Below, piece after piece: positions 39,289 to 63,400 of a DNA stretch of 64,000 bases. This stretch comes from Escherichia phage OliverMaurmann_Bas86. The DNA lies in sequence record PQ850622.1. The stretch is one strand, 5' to 3'. Under the pieces are notes generated by a model. That model saw nothing but the letters and a program-made list of their open reading frames with translations. It was not told the origin of the DNA and did no database searches. Numbering within the stretch: the stretch's first letter is position 1; each line of letters starts with the position of its first letter. The translations under genes and the position numbers were made by a program.

Positions 39289-39474
39289 TTATTCTACTTC
39301 GAAGTGTTTGATCACACCAGTCAACACATCAGATTGGAATGTACCCACTAGCTCTGTACCTCGGAAGAAGTTAACACTTGTTCCAAGTGATTCAAAGCGA
39401 TCTGCTTGAATGTCCAGAGATTGAATATTTCCTTCTGCTGACATTGTACGAAACATGATTGTGTATTTATTCAC
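39289..39474 (-). CDS. Hypothetical protein
   Basis: 61-aa ORF coupled to the upstream gene. Confidence 0.45.
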   Translation of the reverse strand: MNKYTIMFRTMSAEGNIQSLDIQADRFESLGTSVNFFRGTELVGTFQSDVLTGVIKHFEVE

Positions 39475-39713
39475 AGACTTGTTACTCCCTTATCTGCTTG
39501 TGCAATTGCGATGATACGCTCAGCACATTCCATTGAATATTTATCACCTCGTTTGAGGAAGGTGATGATTGCAGAGAACTGATTACCAATCATTCTCTTA
39601 TTTGTGATACCGAACTCTTCACAGAGTTGGTTGATAGCTTTACGAGAGCCTACAATCAGAGGCTCTTTTTCTTCGGTCATTCCACGGCTGATCAAATCTT
39701 CGATAGACAACAT
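39471..39713 (-). CDS. Hypothetical protein (possible HTH)
   Basis: 80-aa ORF. INQLCEEFGITNKRMIGNQFS is HTH-like (weak). Confidence 0.5.
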   Translation of the reverse strand: MLSIEDLISRGMTEEKEPLIVGSRKAINQLCEEFGITNKRMIGNQFSAIITFLKRGDKYSMECAERIIAIAQADKGVTSL

Positions 39714-39739
39714 TACAAATTCCTTTTTGTTTAATTTAA

Positions 39740-40975
39740 TTACAGAGTTACTGCTACTTCGCTACCTTCAACATTGACAGACTCTAACTTGCGAGGGTTA
39801 TGAATCTGTACCGGATTAACCGGAACGTTCCAACCACTACGGTAGAAGTTACGACCATCACAGAACAAAATGACATTGGCAGACATTGCATTCGGTTGCA
39901 GGTTGTTATGGACATGACGGATATCTGCAATCCAATAACCACGAGACAAAGTGTAACCAGTAGGTGCATTACGAATAGTTTGAGTATTCATCTGACCTTC
40001 CAGTTGCATCTCTTCAGGAACTACATCTACCGAATCAACTGGCTGTGCTACCTGATCTTCCAGTGCAAAGTTTTCATCATTAGCGCTTTCGCTGTCATCT
40101 ACCAACTCACCGTCTCCATCTTCAATCGGAGTCTGGTAAACCACTTTATACTGAGGAGTATAGAGAGGGTTCTGAGCTTTAACAAACTCAAGGATGTTAT
40201 GGCGGTAGGTATCCAGAGTTGTACCAGTCAGGCCCGGTGCTGTATTAACTTCCAGTACCCACGCTTCTTGACCTTTGGTGATAATATCAACTGCACCGAA
40301 ATCCAGACCCATTGATTCAACAGCTTTCACCGCATTGATCAGAGAGGCGTCATTCGGAGCATCTGTGAAGGAGCTTGAGTAAACCCAGCCAGTGTGGTGA
40401 TTACGAATATCTTCACGATAGTTAGGGTCTTCGCGATAACCATTGCGACGAATCTTCTTCTGAACATAGGTGATTACACCTTTGAACACATGAACACGCC
40501 ACTCACGACGTGGGCCTTGAATGCCTTTAGTGTACAGTTCAGCTCGACCAAGACCATCACCCGGTTCTACAACAACAATACCCGAACCAGAGTGACCAGT
40601 CAGCTCATGGCGCTCATACACAATATTACCAGTGTTTGACCACTCCTGAGCAGTCTCTTGAACATCTGTGTATTCCACAGTTTTAACACCTGCTTGGTCC
40701 ATCACACTGAAAGCACGACGTTTGTTCGCTGCCATATATAAGGCTGCGGTACGGTTAAGGACGGTTGCAGAACCAAAGAATGATTCAGGATAGCGACGGT
40801 TCCCGTAGTTAACAACCACATCACCTTCACGAGAACGCCAGCGGCTATTCTCTGAAAGAAGACCCATCACGTTAGCATTGATGCGTTCATCACGGATAGT
40901 ATCACTGATAGCAGATACTAGAGCGTTAACAGAATCAGACGGGCCATACGGAAGAACACGGATACGAGTAGTCAT
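39740..40975 (-). CDS. ATP-grasp ligase (RimK-like)
   Basis: Layout and motifs fit an ATP-grasp fold (..ANKRRAF..GV.TV.., EWRVHVFKG, DFGAVDII..WVLEVNTAPGL). The C-terminal 130 aa are unassigned. Confidence 0.75.
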   Translation of the reverse strand: MTTRIRVLPYGPSDSVNALVSAISDTIRDERINANVMGLLSENSRWRSREGDVVVNYGNRRYPESFFGSATVLNRTAALYMAANKRRAFSVMDQAGVKTVEYTDVQETAQEWSNTGNIVYERHELTGHSGSGIVVVEPGDGLGRAELYTKGIQGPRREWRVHVFKGVITYVQKKIRRNGYREDPNYREDIRNHHTGWVYSSSFTDAPNDASLINAVKAVESMGLDFGAVDIITKGQEAWVLEVNTAPGLTGTTLDTYRHNILEFVKAQNPLYTPQYKVVYQTPIEDGDGELVDDSESANDENFALEDQVAQPVDSVDVVPEEMQLEGQMNTQTIRNAPTGYTLSRGYWIADIRHVHNNLQPNAMSANVILFCDGRNFYRSGWNVPVNPVQIHNPRKLESVNVEGSEVAVTL

Positions 40976-47528: not shown

Positions 47529-48746
47529 CTATTTATTAAAGAATAATTTTTCCATAATGGTTTCCCACTCTTCTGAGGGGAGGGTTGAGAACCCGTTTCC
47601 GTGAAGCCTGTTTGTCATGCAACTAATAATATTGTACATGTTGTAGCTTCGGGTGGATTCTGTTCCATTGTTCCAGTTATAACCGAAAACAATTTTATCG
47701 AAGGAGGTTTTATCCGTAGTTACTTCTCGGATGAACTCAACCAAGAGCGATTTCTCTGTGATGACCGCACGTTCACCATCTGGCAGATTACAATACTGAG
47801 GAAGAAGGATTGGTAAGAACATCGAATTGTTCACTCGACAATCGCGCACACCTTCACTGCGATAGATTAGGCTTGAGAAGTCTTCATCACGCAGGTGTCC
47901 TTCACCTTCAGTGTATTCACACTGTCGCCATTTGGTCTGGCGAGGTTCAACCATTGTACTACCAACGCCTACTGTATACAGAGACGCTTGGAAGATACAT
48001 GAATCGTAATCATTCCCTGTTAAAGCAACTTGCTCATTGCCGAACACATCCACTGAAGAGTTGATCAGTCGGCTGAATGCAAGAGAGGCTAAAGGGGACC
48101 AACCTTTCTTATACATCTTGTTCAACATTTCATACACAGCAGATTTTTCATCATCTGTATAGAATGTACGATTCAGCATCAGATAGAACAGAGCGCGATC
48201 AGCAGGACAACCATCAGTACAAACACCCATGAATCCTACTTCATGCCATACCAGACATGAGTCAGAATCCTTATCCATGAATGCTTCAAAGGCTTCCATT
48301 ACAGCCCTGTCAGTAACATCAGGACGGTTGTTTTCTTCTGCCCATGTTTCTACATGAGAAGGAGGACGAGGGTCTCCATTCTCCACCCCTTCGCGGAAAT
48401 ATTGAGTGGTAATAGGCTTTTTATCACCATAACGTTTTACACCATAAGCGGGAAGGTGTGTACCAGAGTTCCAGATGTACTTAATTTCGGACATAGGCAT
48501 CATGTTTTCAAGAACGTTCTCTTCAGCAGTGCCTTGACGAACCATCATATTTTCACTCCACACCTTAATGCGGATATTCCAGCCGTAGTTGCTGTCATAC
48601 GTGTTATAATAATCAGGATCACCATCTTCATCTTCATCATAATCACCACCCTGATAGTAACCTGCTTTCAGGAAACCATAACAAGGAGGCCAGATGGTTA
48701 CAACATCATCTGATTCTTTCCAGCTTTGAAGTGTTACAGGGAACAT
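47529..48746 (-). CDS. Hypothetical protein of the amidoligase cluster
   Basis: 405-aa ORF. Acidic D/E/Y-rich insert near the N-terminus. Confidence 0.55.
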   Translation of the reverse strand: MFPVTLQSWKESDDVVTIWPPCYGFLKAGYYQGGDYDEDEDGDPDYYNTYDSNYGWNIRIKVWSENMMVRQGTAEENVLENMMPMSEIKYIWNSGTHLPAYGVKRYGDKKPITTQYFREGVENGDPRPPSHVETWAEENNRPDVTDRAVMEAFEAFMDKDSDSCLVWHEVGFMGVCTDGCPADRALFYLMLNRTFYTDDEKSAVYEMLNKMYKKGWSPLASLAFSRLINSSVDVFGNEQVALTGNDYDSCIFQASLYTVGVGSTMVEPRQTKWRQCEYTEGEGHLRDEDFSSLIYRSEGVRDCRVNNSMFLPILLPQYCNLPDGERAVITEKSLLVEFIREVTTDKTSFDKIVFGYNWNNGTESTRSYNMYNIISCMTNRLHGNGFSTLPSEEWETIMEKLFFNK

Positions 48747-48757
48747 CTTTTACCTCT

Positions 48758-49120
48758 TTACTCTGCTACCAAAAGGCTCAGAGATTTGCGAATGTAGTCA
48801 ATACTACGGAAGTTTCGATAGTTCTCTTGGAAGCGCATTTTTTCAAACTCTGCTTCCTGAAGCTCTACCTCTGCTGCTTTATATCCTGATAAAGCTAAAC
48901 TTACCACATCCTGAGGTAAGGTATTACGACGGCGAATAAGATATTTATTCGCTTTTAGTTTACCTTGTGCACGAGCCATTTTGGCCTTTGCCGCCTTGAT
49001 ACCATGAGAAATCCAAAGCAGTTGCTGTTTCAGATCTTCCTCATCCATACCACCTAAATCATTTGCTACTTTATGAAGCGTAGACAGGTTCACATGGCCT
49101 TTAATGGGGCGTAGGTTCAT
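48758..49120 (-). CDS. Hypothetical helical protein
   Basis: 120-aa ORF. Confidence 0.5.
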   Translation of the reverse strand: MNLRPIKGHVNLSTLHKVANDLGGMDEEDLKQQLLWISHGIKAAKAKMARAQGKLKANKYLIRRRNTLPQDVVSLALSGYKAAEVELQEAEFEKMRFQENYRNFRSIDYIRKSLSLLVAE

Positions 49121-49284
49121 AACTTCTCCTGTTTGTCACATTGATTGGTTAGCCAGTTGTAAGACCCTCTGTTATTCTTGCTTAACTCGCAAGATGCAAA
49201 AGAGTACATCCTGACAAACCCCACAGTGGCTAAGCAAATAAAGATTGCTGCCAATAAGAATTTAGCTTTCAACTTATTATCCAT
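49117..49284 (-). CDS. Small membrane-anchored protein (55 aa, below track cutoff)
   Basis: MDNKLKAKFLLAAIFICLATVGFV.. RBS agagg. The TGA overlaps the next ATG. Confidence 0.45.
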   Translation of the reverse strand: MDNKLKAKFLLAAIFICLATVGFVRMYSFASCELSKNNRGSYNWLTNQCDKQEKL

Positions 49285-49304
49285 ACAACCTCTTCTTTGA
49301 ACTT

Positions 49305-49329
49305 AAAAAAGGACTCTCATAAGAGAGCC
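49305..49329 (-). terminator. Rho-independent terminator
   Basis: Minus strand reads GGCTCTC-ttat-GAGAGTCC followed by TTTTTT. Confidence 0.8.
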
Positions 49330-49392
49330 AAGCTTTAAGGCCAATTAAATAGATATCACCCAATATCTGTGGATAACCTGCTCTTAAAATAT

Positions 49393-49525
49393 TCTATCCG
49401 ACGGATGTTCGAGGATTATTCCTCTCCCTAGCATCGGCCCCATACGGGAAAGATTAAATTAAGATTAGGTTAGTTGAGCCAGAATAGCTCACATAGCCCT
49501 CTGATACTCACGAGGGCTATAGATG
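49393..49525 (-). repeat. Conserved structured non-coding element, copy 1
   Basis: Aligns with 53929-54055. Contains stop-proximal hairpin ATAGCCCTC/GAGGGCTAT (49493-49520) and inner hairpin GAGGA-ttat-TCCTC (49411-24). Confidence 0.6.
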
Positions 49526-49777
49526 TTACTCTGTATCTCCGTCGAAGCGGAGGATTGCTGTCGGAACAGGAATAACTGCCATGTCAATCTCTAAACGGAA
49601 GAGATGACCTGTGCTCAACTGAACTGCTGTTACCGGCTTAGCGATACCAGCAACAGAGGCAGAAGGGATTCGGATAAAGAATTCCCCCGGATATTCAACC
49701 GAACGAAACACATCTCCCGGTGTCATATCTTTTACTTGAACAGTAGGCTCAGGAGGTGTTTTATTGGAAATTTGCAT
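49526..49777 (-). CDS. Small protein, PGDxF paralog family member 1
   Basis: ..DMTPGDVFR..L.TGHLFRL..VIPVP. Confidence 0.55.
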   Translation of the reverse strand: MQISNKTPPEPTVQVKDMTPGDVFRSVEYPGEFFIRIPSASVAGIAKPVTAVQLSTGHLFRLEIDMAVIPVPTAILRFDGDTE

Positions 49778-50010
49778 TACAAACCTTTCTTAGCACGATC
49801 TTTGGCAGTCTTGCCAGTGCGAATACGGTGGGAAACATTAACCAGTTCGCCGCCTTCGACGATGGTTACGCTTTTATTTTTCGCAATATCGAATACAGTC
49901 TTCTCTGTACCGCCCAGACGAATCTGTTTAGGTTCGCTGTGGGTCTGAGTTGATTTAGACTGGAACTGGAACGGCTGACGGATGGCATCAATTGCGCTAA
50001 CTTTAGACAT
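49777..50010 (-). CDS. Small basic hypothetical protein
   Basis: 77-aa ORF whose stop overlaps the next start. Confidence 0.5.
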   Translation of the reverse strand: MSKVSAIDAIRQPFQFQSKSTQTHSEPKQIRLGGTEKTVFDIAKNKSVTIVEGGELVNVSHRIRTGKTAKDRAKKGL

Positions 50011-50037
50011 GCTTTATTACCTTACATTAAAGAGAGA

Positions 50038-50451
50038 TTAAACAACAAATTGGAACGCTTCGTATCCAAACTTGTATGAGAAGTCATGCTTGAATTTCAC
50101 TACACGACCACGATCACGGAAAGATTTCAGACGACTAATAAAGCCAGCCATCGGCTCAGGGTCAATAGGGCTACGAATCTTCATAGCTACAGAGTGCAGC
50201 TTGAAGCGTTTACCAGTGCTACAGGCCATCATCACATACTCCATACGAGTAGTCCAGATGTTGAGCACCATGCTTGTTTTCTCCGCTGACCAACCAGTCT
50301 TGCGGGCGATTTCTTTATGGACATTAAGCTCCAAAGGAAGAGGGAATTGCTTGTTGAATGAAGCCGGATATAGCTTGACCAGAAGGTCAATGTTTTCTTT
50401 ATACGTTAAGTAAGCCAATTTCTTGCTTACGTTAGGGAATTTCCCAGACAT
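50038..50451 (-). CDS. ProQ/FinO-domain RNA-binding protein candidate
   Basis: LYPASFNKQFPLPLELNVHKEI..SAEKTSMVLNIWTTRMEYV..GKRFKLHS parallels E. coli ProQ FPHCF..RPLKIGIFQDL..LRSALRLYTSSWRYL..GATRVDLDG. Confidence 0.65.
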   Translation of the reverse strand: MSGKFPNVSKKLAYLTYKENIDLLVKLYPASFNKQFPLPLELNVHKEIARKTGWSAEKTSMVLNIWTTRMEYVMMACSTGKRFKLHSVAMKIRSPIDPEPMAGFISRLKSFRDRGRVVKFKHDFSYKFGYEAFQFVV

Positions 50452-50629
50452 TTTTTGAAGCTCCAAAACAGCGCCGAAAAGAGAGGCGTCATAGTAGCTA
50501 AAGGGAGGAGAGAAGAGGGCTTATTTACTTGCCTTTTTCTGTCCGTTAATGTACCAGAGAACTGAGCCATCAGGCTGTCGCTGACCGAAGCCTTTCAGGT
50601 TAACCATTTCTTCTTCAGAGTAGGCACGT

Positions 50630-50893
50630 TTATTCACTGATCTTCTCCACTAAATCCAGAGTTGCCGATTCAAACACAACACCAACTGGCATACTAGGTG
50701 CCATATTACGAACGTATCCACTCTGCATAGACACGGCTCGAGAGTATTCAGAACCGTTAGAGCTTTTGTTTACCTTCATGTAAAGGGTTTGTTCTTTATC
50801 TTCTTTCAGAGTAAAGAAAGAGCCGGGAAGAAGCCCCTGAACAGTCAGAGGGATATCTGCAACATGAGTCTTATTGATAGTAAGAACTGTCAT
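50630..50893 (-). CDS. Small protein, PGDxF paralog family member 2 (divergent)
   Basis: ..GLLPGSFFTL..LYMKV.. Confidence 0.5.
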   Translation of the reverse strand: MTVLTINKTHVADIPLTVQGLLPGSFFTLKEDKEQTLYMKVNKSSNGSEYSRAVSMQSGYVRNMAPSMPVGVVFESATLDLVEKISE

Positions 50894-50896
50894 TGC

Positions 50897-51151
50897 TTAT
50901 TCCTTAATAGTTGCTTCAGCTTTAATAGGAATAACAGCAACATCTTTACGAGGTGCTGTCGCTCGGCCCGTATTAAGACAGGCTACAAGTCTGTGCTCAT
51001 CCGCACCCTTAATACAGAGTCGAGTAGAGAACTCGGTAGACAATAAGATGTACAAATCATCATCTTCACTATTAGGGAACATGAAGCAATCCCCGAGTCG
51101 TAAAGCACTGAGAGGTATTGCATTCTTACCTGCTGGTTTGTTAACTTTCAT
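50897..51151 (-). CDS. Small protein, PGDxF paralog family member 3
   Basis: ..LRLGDCFMF..LYILL..VAVIPI. Confidence 0.5.
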   Translation of the reverse strand: MKVNKPAGKNAIPLSALRLGDCFMFPNSEDDDLYILLSTEFSTRLCIKGADEHRLVACLNTGRATAPRKDVAVIPIKAEATIKE

Positions 51152-51427
51152 TTAACCACCTTTAGTTATGGACCGATTTATGAGAGAACTCTTGGAAGAA
51201 TGCTTTCATAAATAGGGGGAGGGGACGAATCCTCCCATATCCTATTAATTAATATTGCATGTAAGATCTAACAATTCGATGCTGTAGTGGATAGCGTAAA
51301 ACGCTTACCGGCATTAAACCCAGCCCATGAGGGGCTTATGTGAATAAAATGCTCAACATTGAGCGGTTAGTTGATAGGAGATCTGAAGTCCTATCTCAAA
51401 GGACTCTCGTAAGAATCCTTCACGATA

Positions 51428-51694
51428 TTACTTAGTAACAAAGACTGTCACCTTATCCATTACCCAGCCTATCAACATAAGTAAAGGTAAGAAGAGGATA
51501 AAGATCAGCATAAAAGGCCAGAAGAATATCACCGTCCAAATAGAGTATTCATCAGGCTTACCACTCCACGAGGAATGGAAGAAGTTGTAGAGTGTATTGG
51601 TTTTGAAGCACCACTTAACTACAATGGCTGCCAACCACCAACCAATAACATAAATCAGGAGGACATACGCTGCTGTAACCATTGACCGTTCCAT
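51428..51694 (-). CDS. Integral membrane protein (3 TMD)
   Basis: Hydrophobic stretches AAYVLLIYVIGWWLAAIVV and IWTVIFFWPFMLIFILFLPLLMLIGWV. Confidence 0.55.
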   Translation of the reverse strand: MERSMVTAAYVLLIYVIGWWLAAIVVKWCFKTNTLYNFFHSSWSGKPDEYSIWTVIFFWPFMLIFILFLPLLMLIGWVMDKVTVFVTK

Positions 51695-51909
51695 TGATAG
51701 TTGCGAGTGACCACGTTTCCGTGGATAAGAAAGTGCTGTCGACGAAGGGTATCTTTAACGTTGTAATAGGCAGCGTTTCCAAGATGGCCTTCTTTGATAA
51801 GCCAACGCAGGTTGCGAATACCAACTAACAACATAAGTACTTGTTGCTTGTATGAAGTTTGAGCTGCTGTTTCAAGTAGAGCTTTCGTATCAGAATAATG
51901 ACCGGACAT
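51655..51909 (-). CDS. Hypothetical protein
   Basis: 84-aa ORF. Confidence 0.45.
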   Translation of the reverse strand: MSGHYSDTKALLETAAQTSYKQQVLMLLVGIRNLRWLIKEGHLGNAAYYNVKDTLRRQHFLIHGNVVTRNYQWNGQWLQQRMSS

Positions 51910-51910
51910 A

Positions 51911-52237
51911 TCACCACTCCTTACCTGTTGTTGTCACAGAGCCACCACACAGCTCACCACGGGAGATGAAGTCATAACGTGACCAATCACCTTGGGTAGC
52001 CATATCACGCTTTGCATAAGCCTTCTCGTCAACAGCACCGCCATTGGAACAAGAAGCACCAGCATAATGCATATCAATTTCTCCACTAGGAATCTTCTCT
52101 CCGCTATGCCAACGGGAAACACAGACACCTTCTACAGATAATGCACACCATCCATCAGGACGATGCTGTACGCAGCCTGTAAGAGCTACACAGGCGATAA
52201 AGATACAGGTTAAGGTAATTACACCACCCCAACTCAT
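51911..52237 (-). CDS. Lipoprotein
   Basis: ITLTCIFIACVALTGCVQH contains the lipobox LTGC. Confidence 0.6.
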   Translation of the reverse strand: MSWGGVITLTCIFIACVALTGCVQHRPDGWCALSVEGVCVSRWHSGEKIPSGEIDMHYAGASCSNGGAVDEKAYAKRDMATQGDWSRYDFISRGELCGGSVTTTGKEW

Positions 52238-52374
52238 GATCCCTCCTGAAGCGCCTTACGGCGGCTATCTCGCCAAGCCATCCATAGGTAGGTTTTAAGT
52301 TCTTCTCTTTCTTCTTCTCTGAACAAAGGAGAAGTAAAGATATCATCGAACCACTCATTAAACTCAGGGGTCAT
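52234..52374 (-). CDS. Small acidic protein (46 aa, below track cutoff)
   Basis: Strong RBS aggaggg. MTPEFNEWFDDIFTSPLFREEEREELKTYLWMAWRDSRRKALQEGS. The TGA overlaps the next ATG. Preferred over track ORF 52155..52358. Confidence 0.55.
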   Translation of the reverse strand: MTPEFNEWFDDIFTSPLFREEEREELKTYLWMAWRDSRRKALQEGS

Positions 52375-52392
52375 AAACCCTCCTACGTTGAT

Positions 52393-52470
52393 TGGTGCAC
52401 CCTACAGGATTCGAACCTGTAACCGACGACTTAGAAGGTCGCTACTCTAATCCAATTGAGCTAAGGGTGC
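52393..52470 (-). tRNA. tRNA-Arg (anticodon UCU), CCA encoded
   Basis: Minus strand reads GCACCCTTAGCTCAATTGGATTAGAGTAGCGACCTTCTAAGTCGTCGGTTACAGGTTCGAATCCTGTAGGGTGCACCA. 7-bp acceptor stem GCACCCT/AGGGTGC, anticodon loop CTTCTAA, T-loop GGTTCGAATCC. Confidence 0.9.
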
Positions 52471-52479
52471 TAGATTTAT

Positions 52480-52689
52480 TTAACTAAAGATACGAATGGC
52501 TACATCGTGACCAATATGACCGGGAACTTTATGCTGCTCTATTTTCAGACAGCGCTTACAGATACGAGATACACGAGACTCTTTTCTCTCGACTGGAGTG
52601 TCTTTTGCGTGAGTGATTTGAAGGTTTTCAGTGATCACCCACTCATGTTTACACTCAGAATCTTCGGGCTTTTTCTTACGAAAGAACAT
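52480..52689 (-). CDS. Small zinc-ribbon protein (family with 52698, 52872, 62203)
   Basis: ATG at 52689. ..CKHEW..CKRC.. Confidence 0.5.
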   Translation of the reverse strand: MFFRKKKPEDSECKHEWVITENLQITHAKDTPVERKESRVSRICKRCLKIEQHKVPGHIGHDVAIRIFS

Positions 52690-52697
52690 AACACCTC

Positions 52698-52862
52698 TTA
52701 GATCAGATCTGTTTTCTTGTGCAGACCACACACTTTACAGCGAGAGTAGATACGCAACCCTTGTCGCTCTCTGTCAGTAAGTTTATTTGTGATCGTCAGT
52801 TCATAAGTAGAAAGATCTTCCCACTCATGGAAATGAAATAGACGTTTGAACCATTTGATCAT
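52698..52862 (-). CDS. Small zinc-ribbon protein (54 aa, below track cutoff)
   Basis: MIKWFKRLFHFHEWEDLS..RCKVCGLHKK. RBS aaggaa. Confidence 0.5.
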   Translation of the reverse strand: MIKWFKRLFHFHEWEDLSTYELTITNKLTDRERQGLRIYSRCKVCGLHKKTDLI

Positions 52863-52871
52863 AATGATTCC

Positions 52872-53018
52872 TTAGATTATGTCACGACGACTAACTTCAC
52901 CACACACCTTACACTGGATAACGTAACGTACGCCCCTTGCATCTCCACAGATCAGCGGACGGGTGTCGATAATCTTCCAATCATGACAATGGAAGACACG
53001 CTTTAGCCACTTAATCAT
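52872..53018 (-). CDS. Small zinc-ribbon protein (48 aa, below track cutoff)
   Basis: MIKWLKRVFHCHDWKIID..QCKVCGEVS. Paralog of 52698..52862. Confidence 0.5.
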   Translation of the reverse strand: MIKWLKRVFHCHDWKIIDTRPLICGDARGVRYVIQCKVCGEVSRRDII

Positions 53019-53019
53019 A

Positions 53020-53277
53020 TTAAGCACACGCCGGTAGTTCAATTAACTGAGGAGTACGACAAGGACCGTCTTCATACACACCAACCAACGTTGGCATGTA
53101 AGGCCCAGCGCACTGGTATTCGTCGAACAGTTCATTGTAAGTAGGCTTCCACTTCCAAGCCCACACATAACCCATTCGGTCAATGGCAATGTAACGAGTG
53201 TTCAGAGGAACTTGCATCATTACATCACCAACTGCTATTACTTTCGTAATAACTGCTGCTCGGAAGTTTGTCTTCAT
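53020..53277 (-). CDS. Hypothetical protein
   Basis: 85-aa ORF. Confidence 0.5.
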   Translation of the reverse strand: MKTNFRAAVITKVIAVGDVMMQVPLNTRYIAIDRMGYVWAWKWKPTYNELFDEYQCAGPYMPTLVGVYEDGPCRTPQLIELPACA

Positions 53278-53525
53278 GGTGATTTAATCTCAATCTGAAC
53301 ATTGACAACAAATACAGTATGGTTTGCACTGTACACCGAAGTGCCGATGATTGGCTTATCATCACTGAGGATTTCAACAGCGTGATCGAGGTTGATCTTC
53401 AGATGAAGACGACCTGATTCCATGAAGAAATCACCAGCACGTATCTCACCGAACTTAGCTGGCACACCGATAGAAGGTATCAGTATGTCAGTGCGACCTT
53501 TACGGTCAAATAAACGATTGAACAT
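53274..53525 (-). CDS. Small protein, PGDxF paralog family member 4
   Basis: ATG at 53525 behind gagagg, downstream of terminator 53569-99. ..IRAGDFFM..LHLKI.. Confidence 0.5.
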   Translation of the reverse strand: MFNRLFDRKGRTDILIPSIGVPAKFGEIRAGDFFMESGRLHLKINLDHAVEILSDDKPIIGTSVYSANHTVFVVNVQIEIKSP

Positions 53526-53568
53526 ATCAACCTCTCTTGTTAGTTTAAGTAAGAGTTGTCCCTTAATT

Positions 53569-53599
53569 AAAACAACAAAGGCCACCCCGAAGGGCAGCC
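53569..53599 (-). terminator. Rho-independent terminator
   Basis: Minus strand reads GGCTGCCC-ttcg-GGGTGGCC followed by TTTGTTGTTTT. Confidence 0.7.
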
Positions 53600-53608
53600 C
53601 ATTATTAA

Positions 53609-53749
53609 TTATCCACCGTAGAACCAATCACCTTGACGCTTACGGATGTTAGTTGTCAGACGAAGCATGGCAGACTCAATCTTCAGAGCACCATTTGCTA
53701 CTGCATCCATACGTTCAGGACGGTTCATACGTTTGGTTGTCTTCTTCAT
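53609..53749 (-). CDS. Small basic protein (46 aa from ATG 53749)
   Basis: MKKTTKRMNRPERMD.. The upstream part of track ORF 53609..53884 overlaps a hairpin-rich non-coding stretch. Confidence 0.4.
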   Translation of the reverse strand: MKKTTKRMNRPERMDAVANGALKIESAMLRLTTNIRKRQGDWFYGG

Positions 53750-53788
53750 ATCGTTCTCTCTTTGTTGGTGGAGGCAGGTTTGCCAGTT

Positions 53789-53822
53789 AATATAAAGGGA
53801 AGCCCTACACGTTAAGGCTTCC
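53789..53822 (-). terminator. Terminator-like hairpin
   Basis: Minus strand reads GGAAGCC-N11-GGCTTCC followed by CTTTATATT. Confidence 0.45.
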
Positions 53823-53928
53823 GCTTGTACAAACTGTCGAGAACTCTCTACCCCTAGATTGTTCTCTATCCCAAACCGATACATACCCCTACATATCGGA
53901 AAGCTGTTCGAAAATTAACAGGTTTTAG

Positions 53929-54055
53929 TCTATCACCGGATGTTTGAGACAAGTCTCGCCCTAGCGGTGAGCCATATGGCGTTGAGATTATAGTTAATTG
54001 AGGAACACCCTCACATAGCCCTCTGATAGACACAAGGGCTATAAGTCGATGTTAC
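53929..54055 (-). repeat. Conserved structured non-coding element, copy 2
   Basis: Aligns with 49393-49525. Stop-proximal hairpin at 54015-54042. The inner hairpin is GAGAC-aa-GTCTC (53946-57), a compensatory change relative to copy 1. Confidence 0.6.
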
Positions 54056-54286
54056 TTAACCATTGATATGAGTTACTTGAACATCAGGTACAGGGATAAC
54101 TTCATGGTCTTCCTGTAATTGGAACAGTGTCCCCTGACTAAGACCAACCACACGATGCATATCGTTAAGTCTAGTGTCTGTCTTTAGGTAGACATTTTCA
54201 GAGTTAGTTGGTAAACGGAACACATCGCCCGGACGTAACTCACTGAGCTTTTTAGTAACAACTACAGAGAAGAGATTAATTTTCAT
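54056..54286 (-). CDS. Small protein, PGDxF paralog family member 5
   Basis: ..LRPGDVFRL..VYLKT..GTLFQL..VIPVP. Confidence 0.55.
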   Translation of the reverse strand: MKINLFSVVVTKKLSELRPGDVFRLPTNSENVYLKTDTRLNDMHRVVGLSQGTLFQLQEDHEVIPVPDVQVTHING

Positions 54287-54474
54287 TTGATTAACACCAA
54301 ATCAGTACGACGTTCGAAGGAAGGGGAGGATTCACCATTCCACTGAACAAGATAACAGAGAACACCATCAATCGTTGTTCTCCGACGAATAACACCTGTA
54401 ACAGTTCCACCAACAAGGCGAACGGTGTCGCCAACGGTAAATTTAACCTTTGAGCGCATCTCCTGTTTCCTCAT
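54283..54474 (-). CDS. Small SH3/KOW-like protein (start uncertain)
   Basis: ..KFTVGDTVRLVGGTVTGVIRRR..YLVQWNGE. The long track ORF to 54612 overlaps the upstream gene. Confidence 0.4.
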   Translation of the reverse strand: MRKQEMRSKVKFTVGDTVRLVGGTVTGVIRRRTTIDGVLCYLVQWNGESSPSFERRTDLVLIK

Positions 54475-54748
54475 TCTGGCGTTTAATTTCTTCAGTGAGT
54501 TGCTTATTAAGATCTTGAATACGCTTAATCTCCCAACCCAAAGAAGCCAAACGATCGTTACGTGCTTCGATTTGTTCCTGCATTTTAAGTAATTTGGAAC
54601 GAACATCAGCATTAAAAACTTCTTCTTGCTTAAGAAGGAACTCGTAACGACGCTTCCAGCTTGCTGATTTATTTCTTAAAACAATAAACCCTAGAGTAGA
54701 AACCGTTACAGTGAGTACGAAAAGGAACTTATAAACCTCTAAAGACAT
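54443..54748 (-). CDS. Membrane-anchored coiled-coil protein
   Basis: N-terminal TMD FLFVLTVTVSTLGFIVL followed by a charged helix. Confidence 0.55.
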   Translation of the reverse strand: MSLEVYKFLFVLTVTVSTLGFIVLRNKSASWKRRYEFLLKQEEVFNADVRSKLLKMQEQIEARNDRLASLGWEIKRIQDLNKQLTEEIKRQNEETGDALKG

Positions 54749-54949
54749 ATCTTTATCCTCTTAAAGTAAGATATTATAAGAAATATTATTTAGAATTTAT
54801 TATTTCTAAACTTAATTTCTATCAATAATTTTCAGAGGTCTATATACAGTCATTACCTCTGGTCCCAAATCACTTCCACTTTTTACAGAGAAAATCATAA
54901 GTGTGTGATTTATAAGGAAATTTAGTTTGTCAATATTGGCACCTATGAA

Positions 54950-55336
54950 TCAGTCACGGGAGCTATTATTGAACACTAAATCACCACAATACATCGGATT
55001 GGTATACCACTTTGGCACCCCTTCGCTCTTACTCTGAAAGTATGTACCGCTGTACAAAGGCACATAATCTTTCTTCAGTGCACGTCTTGCAAGCCGCTCG
55101 CTCTCTCTGATTGATCTCTTTATCAGAGAGTTATCATCACGAATTAGCTTTACATAACGCTTAAAAGGTTTCTCCTTCTTTAATAGGACGGGTATCCACT
55201 CGAACTGGTTTCGTTGATTTATAACCTGCTCGGCAGTCAGTTTTCGTTGTGACATTCTGTTTATTACGGTATCCGCTACTAATGCTTTGCAAGCGGTTGG
55301 CTGATTCCCTGCCTCATAATAAATAGTCAATGTCAA
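54950..55336 (-). CDS. SleB-type cell wall hydrolase (Hydrolase_2) homolog
   Basis: IYYEAGNQP..ALVADTVINRM..VINQRNQFEW matches E-A..AV..V-x-NR..V-x-x-x-x-QF. TTG start; the upstream frame is open to 55363. Confidence 0.65.
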   Translation of the reverse strand: MTLTIYYEAGNQPTACKALVADTVINRMSQRKLTAEQVINQRNQFEWIPVLLKKEKPFKRYVKLIRDDNSLIKRSIRESERLARRALKKDYVPLYSGTYFQSKSEGVPKWYTNPMYCGDLVFNNSSRD

Positions 55337-55389
55337 AAGTAGCTGGGCTGTCGTTATCAGAACTTACTACCCCCTTGTTTTACGGGCAT

Positions 55390-55415
55390 AAAAAAGCCCC
55401 ATCCGAAGACGGGGC
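55390..55415 (-). terminator. Rho-independent terminator (third of three)
   Basis: Minus strand reads GCCCCGTC-ttcg-GATGGGGC followed by TTTTTTAT. Confidence 0.85.
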
Positions 55416-55470
55416 GACCTGAAAGAGTGAACATGACCTCACTCATTTAAGAATCCTCGAAAAGACTCTT

Positions 55471-55494
55471 AAAAAAGCGGCCTCGTTAAAGGCC
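55471..55494 (-). terminator. Rho-independent terminator (second of three)
   Basis: Minus strand reads GGCCT-ttaacg-AGGCC-gc followed by TTTTTT. Confidence 0.65.
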
Positions 55495-55574
55495 CGGTCA
55501 AATGACCATCCAATAGGGGTTGAACCATGCCAATGATTCACAAAGGGAGTTCCCTTTAGGTATCACTAGCTACG

Positions 55575-55596
55575 CAAAAAGCCGCACAAAGGCGGC
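55575..55596 (-). terminator. Rho-independent terminator (first of three)
   Basis: Minus strand reads GCCGC-ctttgt-GCGGC followed by TTTTTG. Confidence 0.65.
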
Positions 55597-55655
55597 AGAC
55601 ACAAAGACGCTCAAGAAGAGCGTCATAGTAGTTGACTACTGGTACAGAAGAGGGC

Positions 55656-56099
55656 TTACTTAACTCTTGCTGTTTTGAGTGGGTCAATATATTTTTCAAC
55701 TCCCCACTTATGCTTACTATCAGCGTAGAAAACATCTGGTGCACATTGGCTAGTAGTAGGAAATGCTTTCGGTGGCTTAGTGCTACCTTTATTCTTCTGC
55801 TTACCTTTAGTGCGACCGTTACAAAAGATTTCTAAACGTTTTTCTTGTTCTGTTTTTGCTGCACCGTTGGTTAACAGAGAACGCTTGTGATCAGCAAGAA
55901 GAAGAGCATCAGCACGATGAACACGACGACCTAACACCTTCGCTACGGTAGAAGGTTTATGTTCTTGAGCGGCTTGTTTGATAGCTCTTCGTTTAAGGCT
56001 ACGTTTGCTAATATGGTTAACAGCGGCTGGCTTTTCTTTTTCCAGCTCACTCATAGAGAACACTCGTCCGCCTTTCATGCTGATTTTAGATTTAGCCAT
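55656..56099 (-). CDS. Basic hypothetical protein
   Basis: 147-aa K/R-rich ORF. A TATAAT hexamer at 56128-56133 (minus) lies upstream. Confidence 0.55.
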   Translation of the reverse strand: MAKSKISMKGGRVFSMSELEKEKPAAVNHISKRSLKRRAIKQAAQEHKPSTVAKVLGRRVHRADALLLADHKRSLLTNGAAKTEQEKRLEIFCNGRTKGKQKNKGSTKPPKAFPTTSQCAPDVFYADSKHKWGVEKYIDPLKTARVK

Positions 56100-56169
56100 T
56101 TCTTTATTCCTTTCGCTGATAAATTATATCGTGCAAGCCTTACCACATAGCAAGGCTTAACCAAATAAC

Positions 56170-56379
56170 TTAATCAATTAAACTAAACGATTTCCAACTA
56201 CGTGTAATTGCTACCTTTTCGCCATCAAAGAGAACACTTACAGAGATCAGTTTACCGCGACAACTGGATACCGTGGTAATACGTCCGGTTAATGCCTTAC
56301 CTTTATTCAGGTAGTGATAGCGGACACGACGTCCTAACAAACGAGTAGCTTTCTTCTCTAACGTGCTTAAGCTGGTCAT
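56170..56379 (-). CDS. Small hypothetical protein
   Basis: 69-aa ORF whose start overlaps the upstream stop. Confidence 0.5.
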   Translation of the reverse strand: MTSLSTLEKKATRLLGRRVRYHYLNKGKALTGRITTVSSCRGKLISVSVLFDGEKVAITRSWKSFSLID

Positions 56380-56600
56380 TAAATAGCCCCTTTATATTGG
56401 AGTGATCTTACACGACGATACATAACAGTTGATGCACTAATCGCCGCTTGTTTTCTTTCGTGCTCATGCTGATTCTTTCGAATCTTATCCATCTCGGCAT
56501 CATTACGACGACGTTGTAAGATTCTGCTACATTTGCGATGGTTATTATTAGCACGTGCTTTCTTACAGATAGGGCACAAATGGGATTGAGTTAAGATCAT
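56379..56600 (-). CDS. Small basic Cys-containing protein
   Basis: HLCPICKK..HRKC, then R/K-rich. Confidence 0.5.
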   Translation of the reverse strand: MILTQSHLCPICKKARANNNHRKCSRILQRRRNDAEMDKIRKNQHEHERKQAAISASTVMYRRVRSLQYKGAI

Positions 56601-56830
56601 TTGCGTAACCCCAGCTTACGAAGGAATCGGCCTAACTTAGTTTCTTGCGTGATAGTGTAAGTAACAGAGTTATCAATCAAGGCTTGTTCTTGAATCGGCG
56701 ACGGATACCATTCACCGGTAAGAATGCATTTGCATTCGATTCCATATCTATCGGTTTTACGATAGGTCATATTGTTTAAGATATTACGATACATCTTAAC
56801 TTCTGTTTTCAATTTTGGCATGGTGATCAT
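56597..56830 (-). CDS. Small hypothetical protein
   Basis: 77-aa ORF, coupled. Confidence 0.5.
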   Translation of the reverse strand: MITMPKLKTEVKMYRNILNNMTYRKTDRYGIECKCILTGEWYPSPIQEQALIDNSVTYTITQETKLGRFLRKLGLRK

Positions 56831-56875
56831 CTCTTTTTAGTTTCTTTGATTAGCACACTGAATCAATGCACTAGT

Positions 56876-56908
56876 AAAAGAAAAGGCGCTACCCTTTCGA
56901 ATAGCGCC
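56876..56908 (-). terminator. Rho-independent terminator
   Basis: Minus strand reads GGCGCTA-N10-TAGCGCC followed by TTTTCTTTT. Confidence 0.8.
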
Positions 56909-56927
56909 CCATGTGTTTTATTGTTGG

Positions 56928-57830
56928 TTATGCTGCCAGTTGGCGTGCCGCCATAATCTCGGCAGCTTTGCGTAACACTTCCTCTTCTTCCTGCGCAGCT
57001 TTCTCATTAGCTTTGACAGTTGAAGCGTTTGAGATACGACCGCGAAGGTTAGACAATTTTTCAGTCATTTCATTGATCACCTTTTCCATTTCATCGGCGT
57101 ACGAGTCCAGAGATTCAAGCTCTTTAGTTGAGGCATTAATCAGGTAGTCATCGCTGATAGAAACAGTTGAAGCGGTTACTTTCTTAAGGAGTGAATCGAA
57201 AGTTTTCTTAACTTTGCCTACTTCTTCACTCAATGCGATAGTATTGTCAGAAGATGCGCCGTTGCGTTCATCTGCCAGTAGTGCCGCTTCAATACGGATT
57301 GCAGCCAGACGGTCAACCAGTGCATAAATATCCTGATTAAAGTTTTCGTTAACCTTCTGGTTGATCTGGTTTGCTACCGGAACATTGTCGTTGCAACCTT
57401 TGTAGAATGCTGGGTTATCAACCTGCACGTCTTCACCTTTAGCAAAGCGTTCAAAGGAATTAGACCAGCGGGCGCGGTTTTGTTCCATTTTGGCCTTAAC
57501 TTGTTCCGGTTTAGCATCCTCTTTCGCTTTCGCTTCACCTTCCAGATTAATCCATTTCTTTTTACCGTTCGCCCCGTCGCTGTTGTACTTGATCGGGGTT
57601 AAGAAAGAGATGGCAACCGCAATCACGTCTAAGTCACGATAACGCTCAGTTAACAAGAAATCAACCGCCGCCTGCAATACATCCAGTTTCTTACCGTTGG
57701 TGCGGAAGTGCTGCAAATGGCCTAACAGGAAGTTAGAAACATCTTGTTTGATTGCCGCGTTGTTGCTACGAATGTTGTTAGCCAGTGCATTAAAGCCGGA
57801 TTCGTTAACCAGATTAAAAACTTTAGCCAT
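56928..57830 (-). CDS. Helical early protein of unknown function (300 aa)
   Basis: ATG at 57830 behind ggtga (the track start at 57839 is GTG). First long gene after the promoter/boxA array. Confidence 0.6.
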   Translation of the reverse strand: MAKVFNLVNESGFNALANNIRSNNAAIKQDVSNFLLGHLQHFRTNGKKLDVLQAAVDFLLTERYRDLDVIAVAISFLTPIKYNSDGANGKKKWINLEGEAKAKEDAKPEQVKAKMEQNRARWSNSFERFAKGEDVQVDNPAFYKGCNDNVPVANQINQKVNENFNQDIYALVDRLAAIRIEAALLADERNGASSDNTIALSEEVGKVKKTFDSLLKKVTASTVSISDDYLINASTKELESLDSYADEMEKVINEMTEKLSNLRGRISNASTVKANEKAAQEEEEVLRKAAEIMAARQLAA

Positions 57831-57898
57831 GATATTCACCTTTCAATTGTAAGGGCACTATGCCCCCGCTCTCTATGAGCTTTTTAAGTCACTATTGA

Positions 57899-57938
57899 CT
57901 TATCAATAATCACTCAATATCAAGTAATTATTGATAAG
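57899..57938. repeat. Perfect 12-bp inverted repeat with 16-nt spacer
   Basis: CTTATCAATAAT (57899-910) and ATTATTGATAAG (57927-938), 70-110 nt upstream of ATG 57830. Confidence 0.8.
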
Positions 57939-58650
57939 CGAGGCGGTCTTATCAGGAGTTAACCTTGCCGCCTCCTTATCCGTGATGTTTCATCTGGTAT
58001 CTTTAATTAGTCGCTATAAATAAAGCCGACCTGATAGCGATGATCAATCATCACAATAAGGCAGTGCGTCCGACTCTATTTAATTACTTTATCGTAACCG
58101 TCGGCAATATCGTCTACTTTGCTTTCGCTCCCGCCTATCCTTTTGTACTAACTCTCAATCGCTAACCATCGCCCACTACGGGAGGTTATTGCGAAAGAGT
58201 CATTAGCCGTCTAATGCATTGACGTTTTATATCTTTCAGCAGGTTTACTACATAAACTGATTATGTACGCCATCAATAGTGGCCTCAAATCATTCACATC
58301 GTAAACGTTCACACTAAACCTTATTGTTAAATAGCAATTTGCCACTTTTTAACCATTCACCGCCGCCCCCAATTGGGCGTTAATTCGTCGGATTTGCCTA
58401 CCCTGATAAACTTCTTTCACTGTAGCACCTTGTTAGCGATGGCCGCCGCTACCCTTTAACCGTGGGCGATTAGTTTAGGCCGTTGCGTGTACTCAATGAA
58501 TCCGTTTTATCAGTGGTGACGTTTCCAGTTAAGGGATTGTAAAAACTGTTTACCCTGATAATTTAGGGAGTCTTACGCCGTTTTATCTGGTATGTTTTCC
58601 GATGGTTATTATCATCCAACATATTCAACCGATATAGGAGAATGTTTAAA

Positions 58651-61690: not shown

Positions 61691-62202
61691 CCAGTCTAAA
61701 CATACATACATCAATAATCCACTCATGAATAATCACATAAGTTATTACATTCAAACTATGGGGGATGGTCATCAATGGTATAGTTTACATAGGTTATCAT
61801 TAATGTTCTTACTATTAATACCGGTTAGTTATAGTCTTCTATTAGTATGCCTGTACAGTGCTAGCCTTTCATCCCTTCTCAATATGAGTAAGAGAAATAC
61901 GGGTGGGAGAATACTGGTTAGATATACATGGGTATTAAATAGATGGCTTATATCAATGGGTAGGGTATTTATGGGTAGGCATACCTCTGATAGCAGGTAG
62001 GGCAAGGATTAGAGCTTAAAGGCTGATTGATTTCCTAAAGGCGATTGCATTCCCTATAACCCTTTTTTAAATGAGGACTCCCCCTTTTACCAAAACACGC
62101 TCGGAGGGGCTAGGTCCACTCGGTCAAATCAGAATTTTAAACTCTTATATATAACTATATGCCCCAACGTTAGTTGTGGATTTAAGAATAAGGAACTATT
62201 TT

Positions 62203-62751: not shown

Positions 62752-63400
62752 CAATATGACAGGAACTAATACACTGAATGCAATCTACGAGAACATGGGA
62801 TGTAAAGGCGAGGTTGTTTACAATGGTAATCTCCGTCCTTTATCAGAGGACACTTTCTATCTGAATCGTGTTCATGAAACTACTGGAGGTCAGTCCCGAG
62901 TTGAGATGGCAAAACAATTGGCTCATGGTTCTGTGTATGGTTATGCTCCTTCAACCCGTGAAATATGGGAAGGTTTGATTCCTTGTACAGAAGCTAAAGA
63001 TGTGAAAGATTATTTCACTGTAGCGAAAGAAGTTAAACGTAAGTGTCCGTCCAATTTAGAAGTTGTTCCGTATGTAGCTGACAAACATGCACACCTACCG
63101 GACTATGCCCGTGAGATGATTGAGATGATAGAAGAGGCTGAGTATGAAGCTCTGAATAATTATTTAAATTCAAAAGAGCAATGGTCTCGTAATGTAGTAA
63201 TTGACGAAGAAGGTAATGAAGTTGTAACGTGGGTGCATGTTAGTGAACAAGCTCTGGACCCCGAGCTTGAAGAATACAAAAAATTTTTGGCGTCCTCTTC
63301 TTTTGAGGTAGAGAATGACAAATCTATTCCAGTTAGCTGGGAAGGTGAAACTGTAGCTCTCCAGACTTTGTTCAACCTACACGTAGGTGATGTAGACTAA
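62741..63400 (+). CDS. Hypothetical protein
   Basis: 219-aa ORF with RBS aaggagag. Confidence 0.55.
   Translation: MMNNNMTGTNTLNAIYENMGCKGEVVYNGNLRPLSEDTFYLNRVHETTGGQSRVEMAKQLAHGSVYGYAPSTREIWEGLIPCTEAKDVKDYFTVAKEVKRKCPSNLEVVPYVADKHAHLPDYAREMIEMIEEAEYEALNNYLNSKEQWSRNVVIDEEGNEVVTWVHVSEQALDPELEEYKKFLASSSFEVENDKSIPVSWEGETVALQTLFNLHVGDVD

Follow-up and report, generated by a model that had tools for sequence, protein, structure and literature searches.

The 64,000-nucleotide stretch of Escherichia phage OliverMaurmann_Bas86 analyzed here (PQ850622.1; the window) carries five small open reading frames (ORFs) that a sequence-only reading had grouped into one protein family. All five are present, on the minus strand: member A (49526–49777; 83 aa), the tandem pair B (50630–50893; 87 aa) and C (50897–51151; 84 aa), the divergent or peripheral member D (53274–53525; 83 aa), and E (54056–54286; 76 aa), which is the family's most central member. 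The start codons of E and A overlap the stop codons of their upstream genes (ATGA and TAATG, respectively), C has the ribosome-binding site AAGGTGG, and B starts 3 nt past the C stop. For D, an inner ATG carries an AGAGAGG ribosome-binding site, and a longer, TTG-started version of the ORF would cross a terminator-like hairpin at 53579–53600; both observations argue for the inner ATG as the correct start. Thirteen orthologue pairs covering all five members gave dN/dS values of 0.03–0.32 (E: 0.30–0.32, against ECBP2 and TH34; A: 0.09–0.26; C: 0.03–0.09; B: 0.21–0.24; D: 0.07–0.18). Together with the ribosome-binding sites and the start/stop overlaps, these values identify the ORFs as coding. 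Selection on the orthologues is purifying rather than diversifying, a pattern that suits stable targets equally well as an arms race.

Members A and E are each directly followed by a copy of a conserved non-coding element, as had been proposed from the sequence. Both copies lie on the minus strand and bear a hairpin (copy 1: 49340–49521, hairpin at 49492–49521, RNA fold z = −3.85; copy 2: 53860–54043, hairpin at 54014–54043, z = −3.64). The 34-nt hairpin segments (49488–49521 and 54010–54043) are 91% identical, while the ~190 nt around them are 71% identical, and a terminator-like hairpin at 49312–49329 comes after copy 1. Between element types, 8 of the 35 predicted pairs stay paired through two-sided changes, and this compensatory pairing is suggestive of a structured RNA. 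The element had no match in Rfam, and a sigma-70 scan returned fewer promoter-like sites than shuffled sequence, none of them at the element.

Pairwise identities among the proteins are low (13–32%), which would suit the view that their likeness arose by chance or that the ORFs are not genes at all. Direct protein evidence is likewise absent: the 34 proteins detected in the SU10 proteome include none of the family, although that sample consisted of concentrated virions and is therefore uninformative. Formal alignment, however, returned the significant pairwise similarity on which the family depended. Within the window, phmmer linked E to A at 3e-5, to C at 6e-3 and to B at 0.07–0.2, with no significant match between E and D; hhalign of the subfamily alignments gave 3e-10 for A–E, 2.7e-6 for C–E and 4e-4 for B–E, and cross-hits between groups of the PHROG database connected A with the family of B at 2.8e-5. 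We then scored all 771 window ORFs with a family HMM built from 123 representatives from outside this phage lineage, which yielded E-values of 1e-20 for E, 3.4e-19 for C, 1.4e-17 for A, 2.5e-13 for B, and 0.058 for D. In hhalign comparisons of the outside profile with the 481 window ORFs of 45–200 aa, the probabilities were 99.2% (E), 98.8% (C), 98.7% (A), 97.0% (B) and 73.2% (D), and the next best ORF reached 8.2%. Neither scan revealed an additional member in the window; two ORFs with weak phmmer hints (61829–62008 and 63160–63396) were lost in the profile tests. With profile E-values of 1e-13 to 1e-20, a clean gap to every other ORF, dN/dS far below 1 and retention of the ORFs in many phage genomes, a chance or non-gene origin is effectively refuted by the HMM scan, the hhalign scan and dN/dS, and we give it next to no weight.

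The motif originally described for the family proved roughly correct. Its G-(D/S)-x-F element occurs throughout; A, B, C and D include departures from Y-(L/M/I)-K and V-x-P-V. The five also fit a description as stand-alone proteins of ~70–90 aa with the ordered core L-x-x-G-(D/E/S)-x-F, (Y/F)-(M/I/L)-(K/R), V-x-L-x-x-G and V-x-(P)-V, except that B lacks the proline, C has Y-I-L-L, and D, as aligned by hhalign, is without the conserved turn glycine. Where the family has G-D-x-F and V-I-P-V, B reads G-S-F-F and V-G-V-V. Across the family, the fixed core comprises an N-terminal M-K-I, L-x-x-G-D-x-F (strand 1), Y-M-K (strand 2), A-V-x-L-x-T-G (the turn between strands 3 and 4) and V-I-P-V (strand 5). 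Positions above 2 bits of information content are mainly hydrophobic or glycine, with a few polar ones, while the other positions and the loop joining strands 2 and 3 vary freely; columns 38–50 carry only 0.2–0.9 bits and many indels. Such a distribution of conserved and variable positions is binder-like.

The AF2 model of member E (pLDDT 81.3) has five strands and is predicted to form the small, closed, antiparallel barrel of an SH3-like fold. A structural search of BFVD found matches in N4, EP335, Hera, Myduc, Cronus, 7-11 and Vibrio phages. The initial impression that the proteins contain no recognizable domain was borne out: searches of Pfam with the five proteins (E≤10) and with 120 family members (E≤0.01), of NCBIfam, and of PDB sequences with the 120-sequence profile returned noise only. 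Domain fusions offered no functional hint. The long proteins P0063, P0128 and P0161 are tandem repeats of the family domain with no other Pfam domain, and the matches of P0045, P0054 and P0059 (globin, SLH/Ig, RCC1) were repeat-driven false positives.

Of the five, member D stands out as distinctly more divergent. The other four match the outside profile over their full length, D only at the profile–profile level. It could be argued that the family consists of four ORFs and that D shares the G-D-F-F and L-K-I motifs by chance. The single D sequence is not significant against any sibling, its HMM score is just 0.058, and it belongs to a PHROG of its own (22099) that shows no cross-hits. Its AF2 model (pLDDT 73) places a helix at 46–54 instead of family strand 3, its structural matches to family members all have E-values above 0.06, and its BFVD hits overlap only weakly with those of E. 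The N-terminal half of D (FGEIRAGDFF...LHLKI) nevertheless suits the family, the C-terminal half being atypical, and D ranks highest of all ORFs beyond the four in both whole-window scans (73% vs 8%). Its orthologues each match the family HMM (4.5e-5 to 2e-3), and a profile of D with five orthologues (from GAP52, PKM.Lu.22.1, ECO319P1 and TH34) aligns with the family at 95.3% (E = 2.3e-8, 56 columns) and with subfamily E at 94%. The D model is not an independent test, since its input alignment contains the family. We consider an unrelated D unlikely and regard the five genes as very probably real, diverged paralogues of one SH3-like family.

By sequence similarity, the family is not private to OliverMaurmann_Bas86 but widespread in phages, N4 gp21 included. 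An exhaustive profile search retrieved 315 clusters (E≤1e-3), nearly all of them full-length matches of 70–90 aa, whereas word-indexed protein searches gave only close phiEco32-like orthologues; tblastn found matches in 318 phage records, mostly from Vibrio and Escherichia phages. All five proteins are full-length members of their PHROGs (E-values of 1e-21 to 1e-40), and four of the five cross-hit one another's groups: E falls into phrog_16423 (6.8e-24), A into phrog_6570 (1.2e-21), C into phrog_7832 (1e-21) and B into phrog_12612 (2e-29). Neither these groups and 22099 nor the further related PHROGs (7431, 8365, 9955, 10911 and 34455) have an annotated function. Over this region, Gordonclarkvirinae genomes are 92–95% identical to the window, and the BASEL isolates Bas87 and Bas88 are 93–95% identical. 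Copy number varies from five members here and in SU7 to seven in ECBP2 and PKM.Lu.22.1, eight in TH34, and nine in SU10 and phiEco32 (gp95–98, 104, 109 and 113–115), while the first 30 kb of N4 hold one.

The assignment of these genes to an early region agrees with work on phiEco32 and SU10, whose early genes were defined by experiment and correspond to this region (PMC8948821, PMC4281155). The members sit in the leftward cluster that is early in phiEco32, at positions corresponding to gp91–gp115, and fall within the range of SU10 CDS 69–125, which were classed as early (PMC8948821, PMC4281155). Synteny with these two phages suggests that the genes are expressed early in OliverMaurmann_Bas86 as well. 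Early timing may not be universal in the family, given that N4 gp21 lies in a part of its genome that we take to be middle-transcribed.

We propose that each gene encodes a stand-alone, cytoplasmic, five-stranded SH3-like beta-barrel of ~80 residues. The genes would be transcribed in leftward operons, early as in the relatives, from host sigma-70 promoters, and each paralogue would be a small binding protein that, early after infection, engages a host or defence protein of its own in order to block or redirect it. The gene set would expand and contract through tandem duplication and through cassette gain and loss. To this explanation as a whole we assign a probability of about 0.45. Its mechanistic part, the binding of host or defence proteins, is drawn by analogy and is somewhat more tentative; any particular target would likewise be a matter of inference. 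We found no characterized homologue in Pfam, NCBIfam, the PDB, PHROGs or the literature. The role in host takeover or anti-defence first suggested for these genes is consistent with their early position, the binder-like stand-alone fold, the variable copy number, and the reported high resistance of Gordonclarkvirinae to tested defence systems (PMC11990801).

Two other functions deserve consideration. The proteins might target nucleic acids or the machinery of transcription or translation, and so tune host or phage expression instead of blocking defences. Many bacterial SH3-like, Tudor-like and KOW barrels do so, among them the CarD, Mfd and UvrD domains on the RNA polymerase beta subunit, the NusG/Spt5 KOW domains, ribosomal L2/L24/L14e, EF-P and HspQ/YccV. 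The median pI of the family is 5.7, however, with only 19% basic members, which counts against general nucleic-acid binding, and we judge such an expression-tuning role improbable. Slightly less probable again is that the proteins serve the phage itself, for example as adaptors or chaperones in replication, DNA modification or protease control, and are products of dispensable accessory genes that have no host target. Close relatives with the same core machinery differ in copy number and in which paralogues they carry, which speaks against it.

If the proposed binder function is extended to the whole family, the proteins could represent a scaffold for binders that is shared across phages and had not been described before: a pared-down SH3-like barrel whose loop is hypervariable, swapped as cassettes to give a changing repertoire of inhibitors of host immunity and takeover targets. 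Lytic phages would duplicate these cassettes, bounded in the present case by a conserved structured RNA element. We regard this extension as unlikely; if it is true, one source would provide several new anti-defence proteins and would help to account for the resistance of Gordonclarkvirinae to most tested defence systems. Many inhibitors of bacterial machinery and immunity have come from small early phage proteins, most of which are still unclassified ORFans. Here, at least 10 PHROGs of unknown function are united as one SH3-like superfamily of 315 clusters with a defined core and a hypervariable loop. N4 and the BASEL isolates Bas87 and Bas88, all of them tractable, carry the family, and its amplification to 5–9 copies in phages whose resistance to defence systems is reportedly unusual offers a concrete, testable set of candidates. 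Should the paralogues have different targets, they would be a natural case of one scaffold with many specificities; otherwise, they would be an ordinary accessory gene family.

The SH3-like barrel is a generic fold whose representatives bind RNA polymerase, ribosomes, DNA and metals as well. Known small barrels of this type (the ribosomal L2 C-domain, the DtxR/IdeR SH3 domain, FeoA, Tudor, KOW, EF-P domain I, HspQ/YccV, CarD and VapX) share only 5–19% identity with the family, and their functional motifs are not evident in it. Their Pfam models are unmatched, including those of KOW, Tudor, FeoA and DtxR-SH3 for the five proteins at E≤10 and for 120 members at E≤0.01; the likeness is one of fold, not of family. 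The PHROG database divides the superfamily into at least 10 groups without function or fold, and we found no paper that links these groups or describes the SH3-like fold or the amplification.

T7 Gp2 is a small early phage inhibitor that acts by binding a host protein, and we know of no inhibitor of the Gp2 or phiEco32 gp79 type that forms a multi-copy family. gp79, an 82-aa RNA polymerase inhibitor, displaces sigma-70 (PMC12276001, PMC8948821). Inhibitors of this kind occupy the family's genomic niche and size class, being small, stand-alone and encoded outside the late structural genes, and they act by binding a host protein. Neither gp79 nor Gp2 is homologous to the family, and the gp79 sequence looks helical; the family HMM does not hit gp79, which is matched in the window by an ORF at 39471–39761 (2.6e-39) and by none of the five.

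The non-coding element, for its part, recalls the PeSL promoter/stem-loop cassettes of T4-type phages (PMC2839356, PMC4122927): in both, a conserved intergenic stem-loop is repeated in a variable region of small ORFs and lies at the boundaries of cassettes whose gene content varies between close relatives. Unlike in PeSLs, the hairpin here comes without a convincing sigma-70 promoter, and the element is longer (~190 nt) and has the compensatory pairing described above. A direct counterpart of the proteins is N4 gp21, an uncharacterized 74-aa protein for which we found no published functional study. It matches the outside HMM at 1.1e-16 and the predicted structure at a Foldseek E-value of 1.1e-4 (TM 0.75), and like the members described here it is of the same size and stands alone, in a single copy (within the first 30 kb) that lies downstream of gp15 and gp16, the genes for the phage RNA polymerase.

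All five ORFs of the proposed PGDxF family are present on the minus strand (A, 49526-49777; B, 50630-50893; C, 50897-51151; D, 53274-53525; E, 54056-54286). The starts of A and E overlap the stop codon of the preceding gene (TAATG and ATGA, respectively), B begins 3 nt past C, and good ribosome-binding sites precede C and D. For D, the internal ATG chosen in the sequence-only reading is correct; a longer, TTG-started ORF would cross a terminator-like hairpin (53579-53600). In the 13 orthologue pairs whose synonymous divergence could be measured, dN/dS lies at 0.03-0.32, a signal of purifying selection on the protein. The SU10 proteome, obtained from concentrated virions, lists no family member.

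Pairwise similarity, on which the proposed family had been made to depend, is significant for A-E, C-E and B-E, while D joins at profile level only. Within the window, phmmer linked E to A (3e-5) and C (6e-3), reached only 0.07-0.2 for B and gave no E-D link; with orthologues added, hhalign yielded 3e-10 for A-E, 2.7e-6 for C-E and 4e-4 for B-E. Among PHROG profiles, A matches the family of B (2.8e-5). Searched exhaustively with a profile, 1.84 billion representatives yielded 315 clusters at E ≤ 1e-3, of which almost all are 70-90 aa long and match over their full length. We then ran an HMM built from only 123 of these outside sequences on all 771 window ORFs, which recovered E (1e-20), C (3e-19), A (1e-17) and B (2.5e-13), with D ranking next at 0.058, followed by noise. 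Compared with the outside profile by hhalign, exactly the five reported ORFs stood out among 481 window ORFs of 45-200 aa (99.2, 98.8, 98.7, 97.0 and 73.2%); the next best reached 8.2%, and no sixth member was found. Since the outside sequences came from a search whose profile had A, B, C and E as its seeds, this test stands independently for D and for the lack of additional members, and less so for the four seeds.

D is probably a peripheral member. Its orthologues in TH34, GAP52, ECO319P1 and PKM.Lu.22.1 each match the family HMM weakly (4.5e-5 to 2e-3), and a D-subfamily profile aligns with the family at 95.3% (E = 2.3e-8). The D model (pLDDT 73), which is not independent because its alignment includes the family, retains the N-terminal strands and has a helix at residues 46-54; its structural matches to family members are weak, though they overlap the match list of E. 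Taken together, the phmmer, hhalign, outside HMM and D-subfamily results confirm a five-member family with D as its divergent member, and the original observation is correct and specific. In Cronobacter phage GAP52 (locus L008, 6204-8994), the D-type homologue is flanked by genes whose annotations give similarity to TerD/TerZ tellurium-resistance and stress proteins and to a putative phage-inhibition membrane protein; such surroundings are unusual for early genes of a phage.

As anticipated, no domain is recognisable: Pfam has no match for the five proteins or 120 relatives, no NCBIfam model matches, and the family profile found nothing among PDB sequences. PHROGs spreads the proteins over 10 or more separate families, none of them with a known function. 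The AlphaFold2 model of E (pLDDT 81.3, pTM 0.67, 16-sequence alignment) has five beta-strands. The suggested structural comparison, run with Foldseek on structure predictions for viral proteins, recovers this fold at 18-30% identity in uncharacterised proteins of other phages, including N4 (gp21), EP335, Paul, Hera, Myduc, MP2, Cronus, Vp_R1 and 7-11. Among the 123 outside members, positions above 2 bits are mostly hydrophobic or glycine, with a few polar residues (M1-K2-I3; (L/F)15, L18; G21-D22-(V/C)23-F24; Y34-M35-K36; V52, L54, G57; V68, P70, V71), and from their place in the sequence we infer that they form core and turns. Information is down to 0.2-0.9 bits in columns 38-50, between strands 2 and 3, where most indels also lie. 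Inspection by eye revealed neither an obvious signal peptide nor an obvious membrane segment.

Matches to the consensus sequence (tblastn) occur in 318 phage records, mostly of Vibrio and Escherichia phages. N4 gp21 is a clear member by sequence (1.1e-16), and we found no paper on its function. Counted with the outside HMM and including D-type members, the family has five members in this window and in SU7, seven in ECBP2, eight in TH34, nine in SU10, nine in phiEco32 (gp95-98 in tandem, gp104, gp109, gp113-115 in tandem), seven in PKM.Lu.22.1 (Grimontviridae) and one in the first 30 kb of N4. Gain and loss are clean and involve whole genes; in both ECBP2 and TH34 the E orthologue has an additional member to either side, and the window lacks both. 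One metagenomic contig places two members inside a run of small genes without Pfam matches. Metagenomes also encode two-domain proteins of 126-177 aa (P0040, P0061, P0071, P0087, P0104, P0132) and multi-repeat proteins (P0063, 834 aa; P0128, 387 aa; P0161, 406 aa), the latter showing several repeats in a row on visual inspection, with 3-4 stretches matched by HMMER; none has another Pfam domain. Given these proteins and the whole-gene turnover, the domain is a self-contained, readily duplicated unit.

Over the 6 kb that hold the five ORFs, the window is 92-95% identical to Gordonclarkvirinae Escherichia phages (Bas87, vB_EcoP-101114UKE3, Bas88, PAS59, SU7, ECBP2 and others), which are phiEco32-like podoviruses of C3 morphology. 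The leftward small-gene cluster at the same genome end of phiEco32 and SU10 was assigned to the early class by experiment, is transcribed from host sigma-70 promoters and has been called the most diverse section of the genome (PMC8948821, PMC4281155). On the minus strand of 48500-58000, terminator-like hairpins number 23 (6.9 expected), with several strong ones between small-gene clusters at 53579-53600, 55396-55415, 56883-56910 and 49312-49329, and promoter-like sites are rarer than expected (8 found, 19 expected); it looks as if partial terminators would divide the early region into short units. Divergence from SU7 across 49526-54286 is strongly mosaic: dS is 1.09 for A (60% amino-acid identity), about 0.5 for B and C, and 0 for D and E, 3.5-4.5 kb from A. 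This indicates replacement of individual small genes or alleles by recent recombination. Midway through the early small-gene region sits a tRNA-Arg (anticodon TCT; 52393-52470, minus strand), as it does in SU7 and phiEco32.

Many SH3-like barrels act on RNA polymerase, ribosomes or nucleic acids, and the fold neighbours favour such a role here as the main alternative. We consider it unlikely: the family is acidic to neutral (median pI 5.7, 19% basic members; 5.0-7.7 for the five window proteins), with no motif match and no obvious shared basic patch. A role internal to the phage appears slightly less likely again. Our tentative preference (probability about 0.4) is that the paralogues are protein binders, each aimed at different host or defence targets, in which a stable scaffold would present variable surfaces. 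The fixed core with its variable loop and surface, the small stand-alone proteins, their early operons, and their turnover and amplification in tandem all point in this direction. Such binders would agree reasonably with the host-takeover or anti-defence function guessed in the sequence-only reading, and with the reported high resistance of Gordonclarkvirinae to tested defence systems (PMC11990801).

The phage carries a known transcription-takeover factor, a homologue (39471-39761, minus strand; phmmer 2.6e-39) of phiEco32 gp79, the RNA polymerase inhibitor that displaces host sigma-70; gp79 is unrelated to the family. Directly upstream of E, the C-terminal part (KVKFTVGDTVRLVGG...YLVQWNG...) of ORF 54283-54612 (minus strand) resembles a distinct mini-domain of KOW- or SH3-like type, and the ORF has no match to the family profile. 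The genes at the corresponding position, phi32_116 and SU10 gp115 (297 nt), bear the annotation 'DNA helicase', which seems an unlikely label for a protein of ~60-100 aa.

The family is thus far catalogued only as PHROGs of unknown function and is absent from Pfam, and we found no description of the superfamily, its fold or its amplification. We regard it as a solid, moderately interesting lead and no surprise.

The conserved non-coding element noted behind two members is likewise borne out. Its two minus-strand copies (49340-49521 and 53860-54043; ~190 nt) open with a 10+2 bp hairpin, UAUAGCCCU(C/U)-loop-GAGGGCUAUG, 4-12 nt past the stop codons of A and E. In SU7, ECBP2, TH34 and phiEco32, the same hairpin always lies directly 3' of the last member of a cluster, even where the gene differs (SU7 locus L001, 3493-3522 and 8305-8334; loci of other relatives, L002 22993-23022, L006 5386-5415 and 11032-11061, L011 6849-6878 and 12696-12725). 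With their downstream flank (231 and 271 nt), the copies are stabler than shuffled sequence (z -3.85 and -3.64), and the internal loops hold conserved CUAGGG and AACAUCCG boxes. Among nine copies of two paralogous types, pairing is kept through two-sided changes in 8 of 35 predicted pairs, covariation that is suggestive and not proven because the copies represent effectively two or three independent lineages. Rfam has no match for the element, and no convincing promoter is present at it. The element may be a 3' RNA structure that serves in processing or stabilisation, or else a cassette boundary, for which the PeSL motifs of T4-type phages (PMC2839356, PMC4122927) would offer a parallel.
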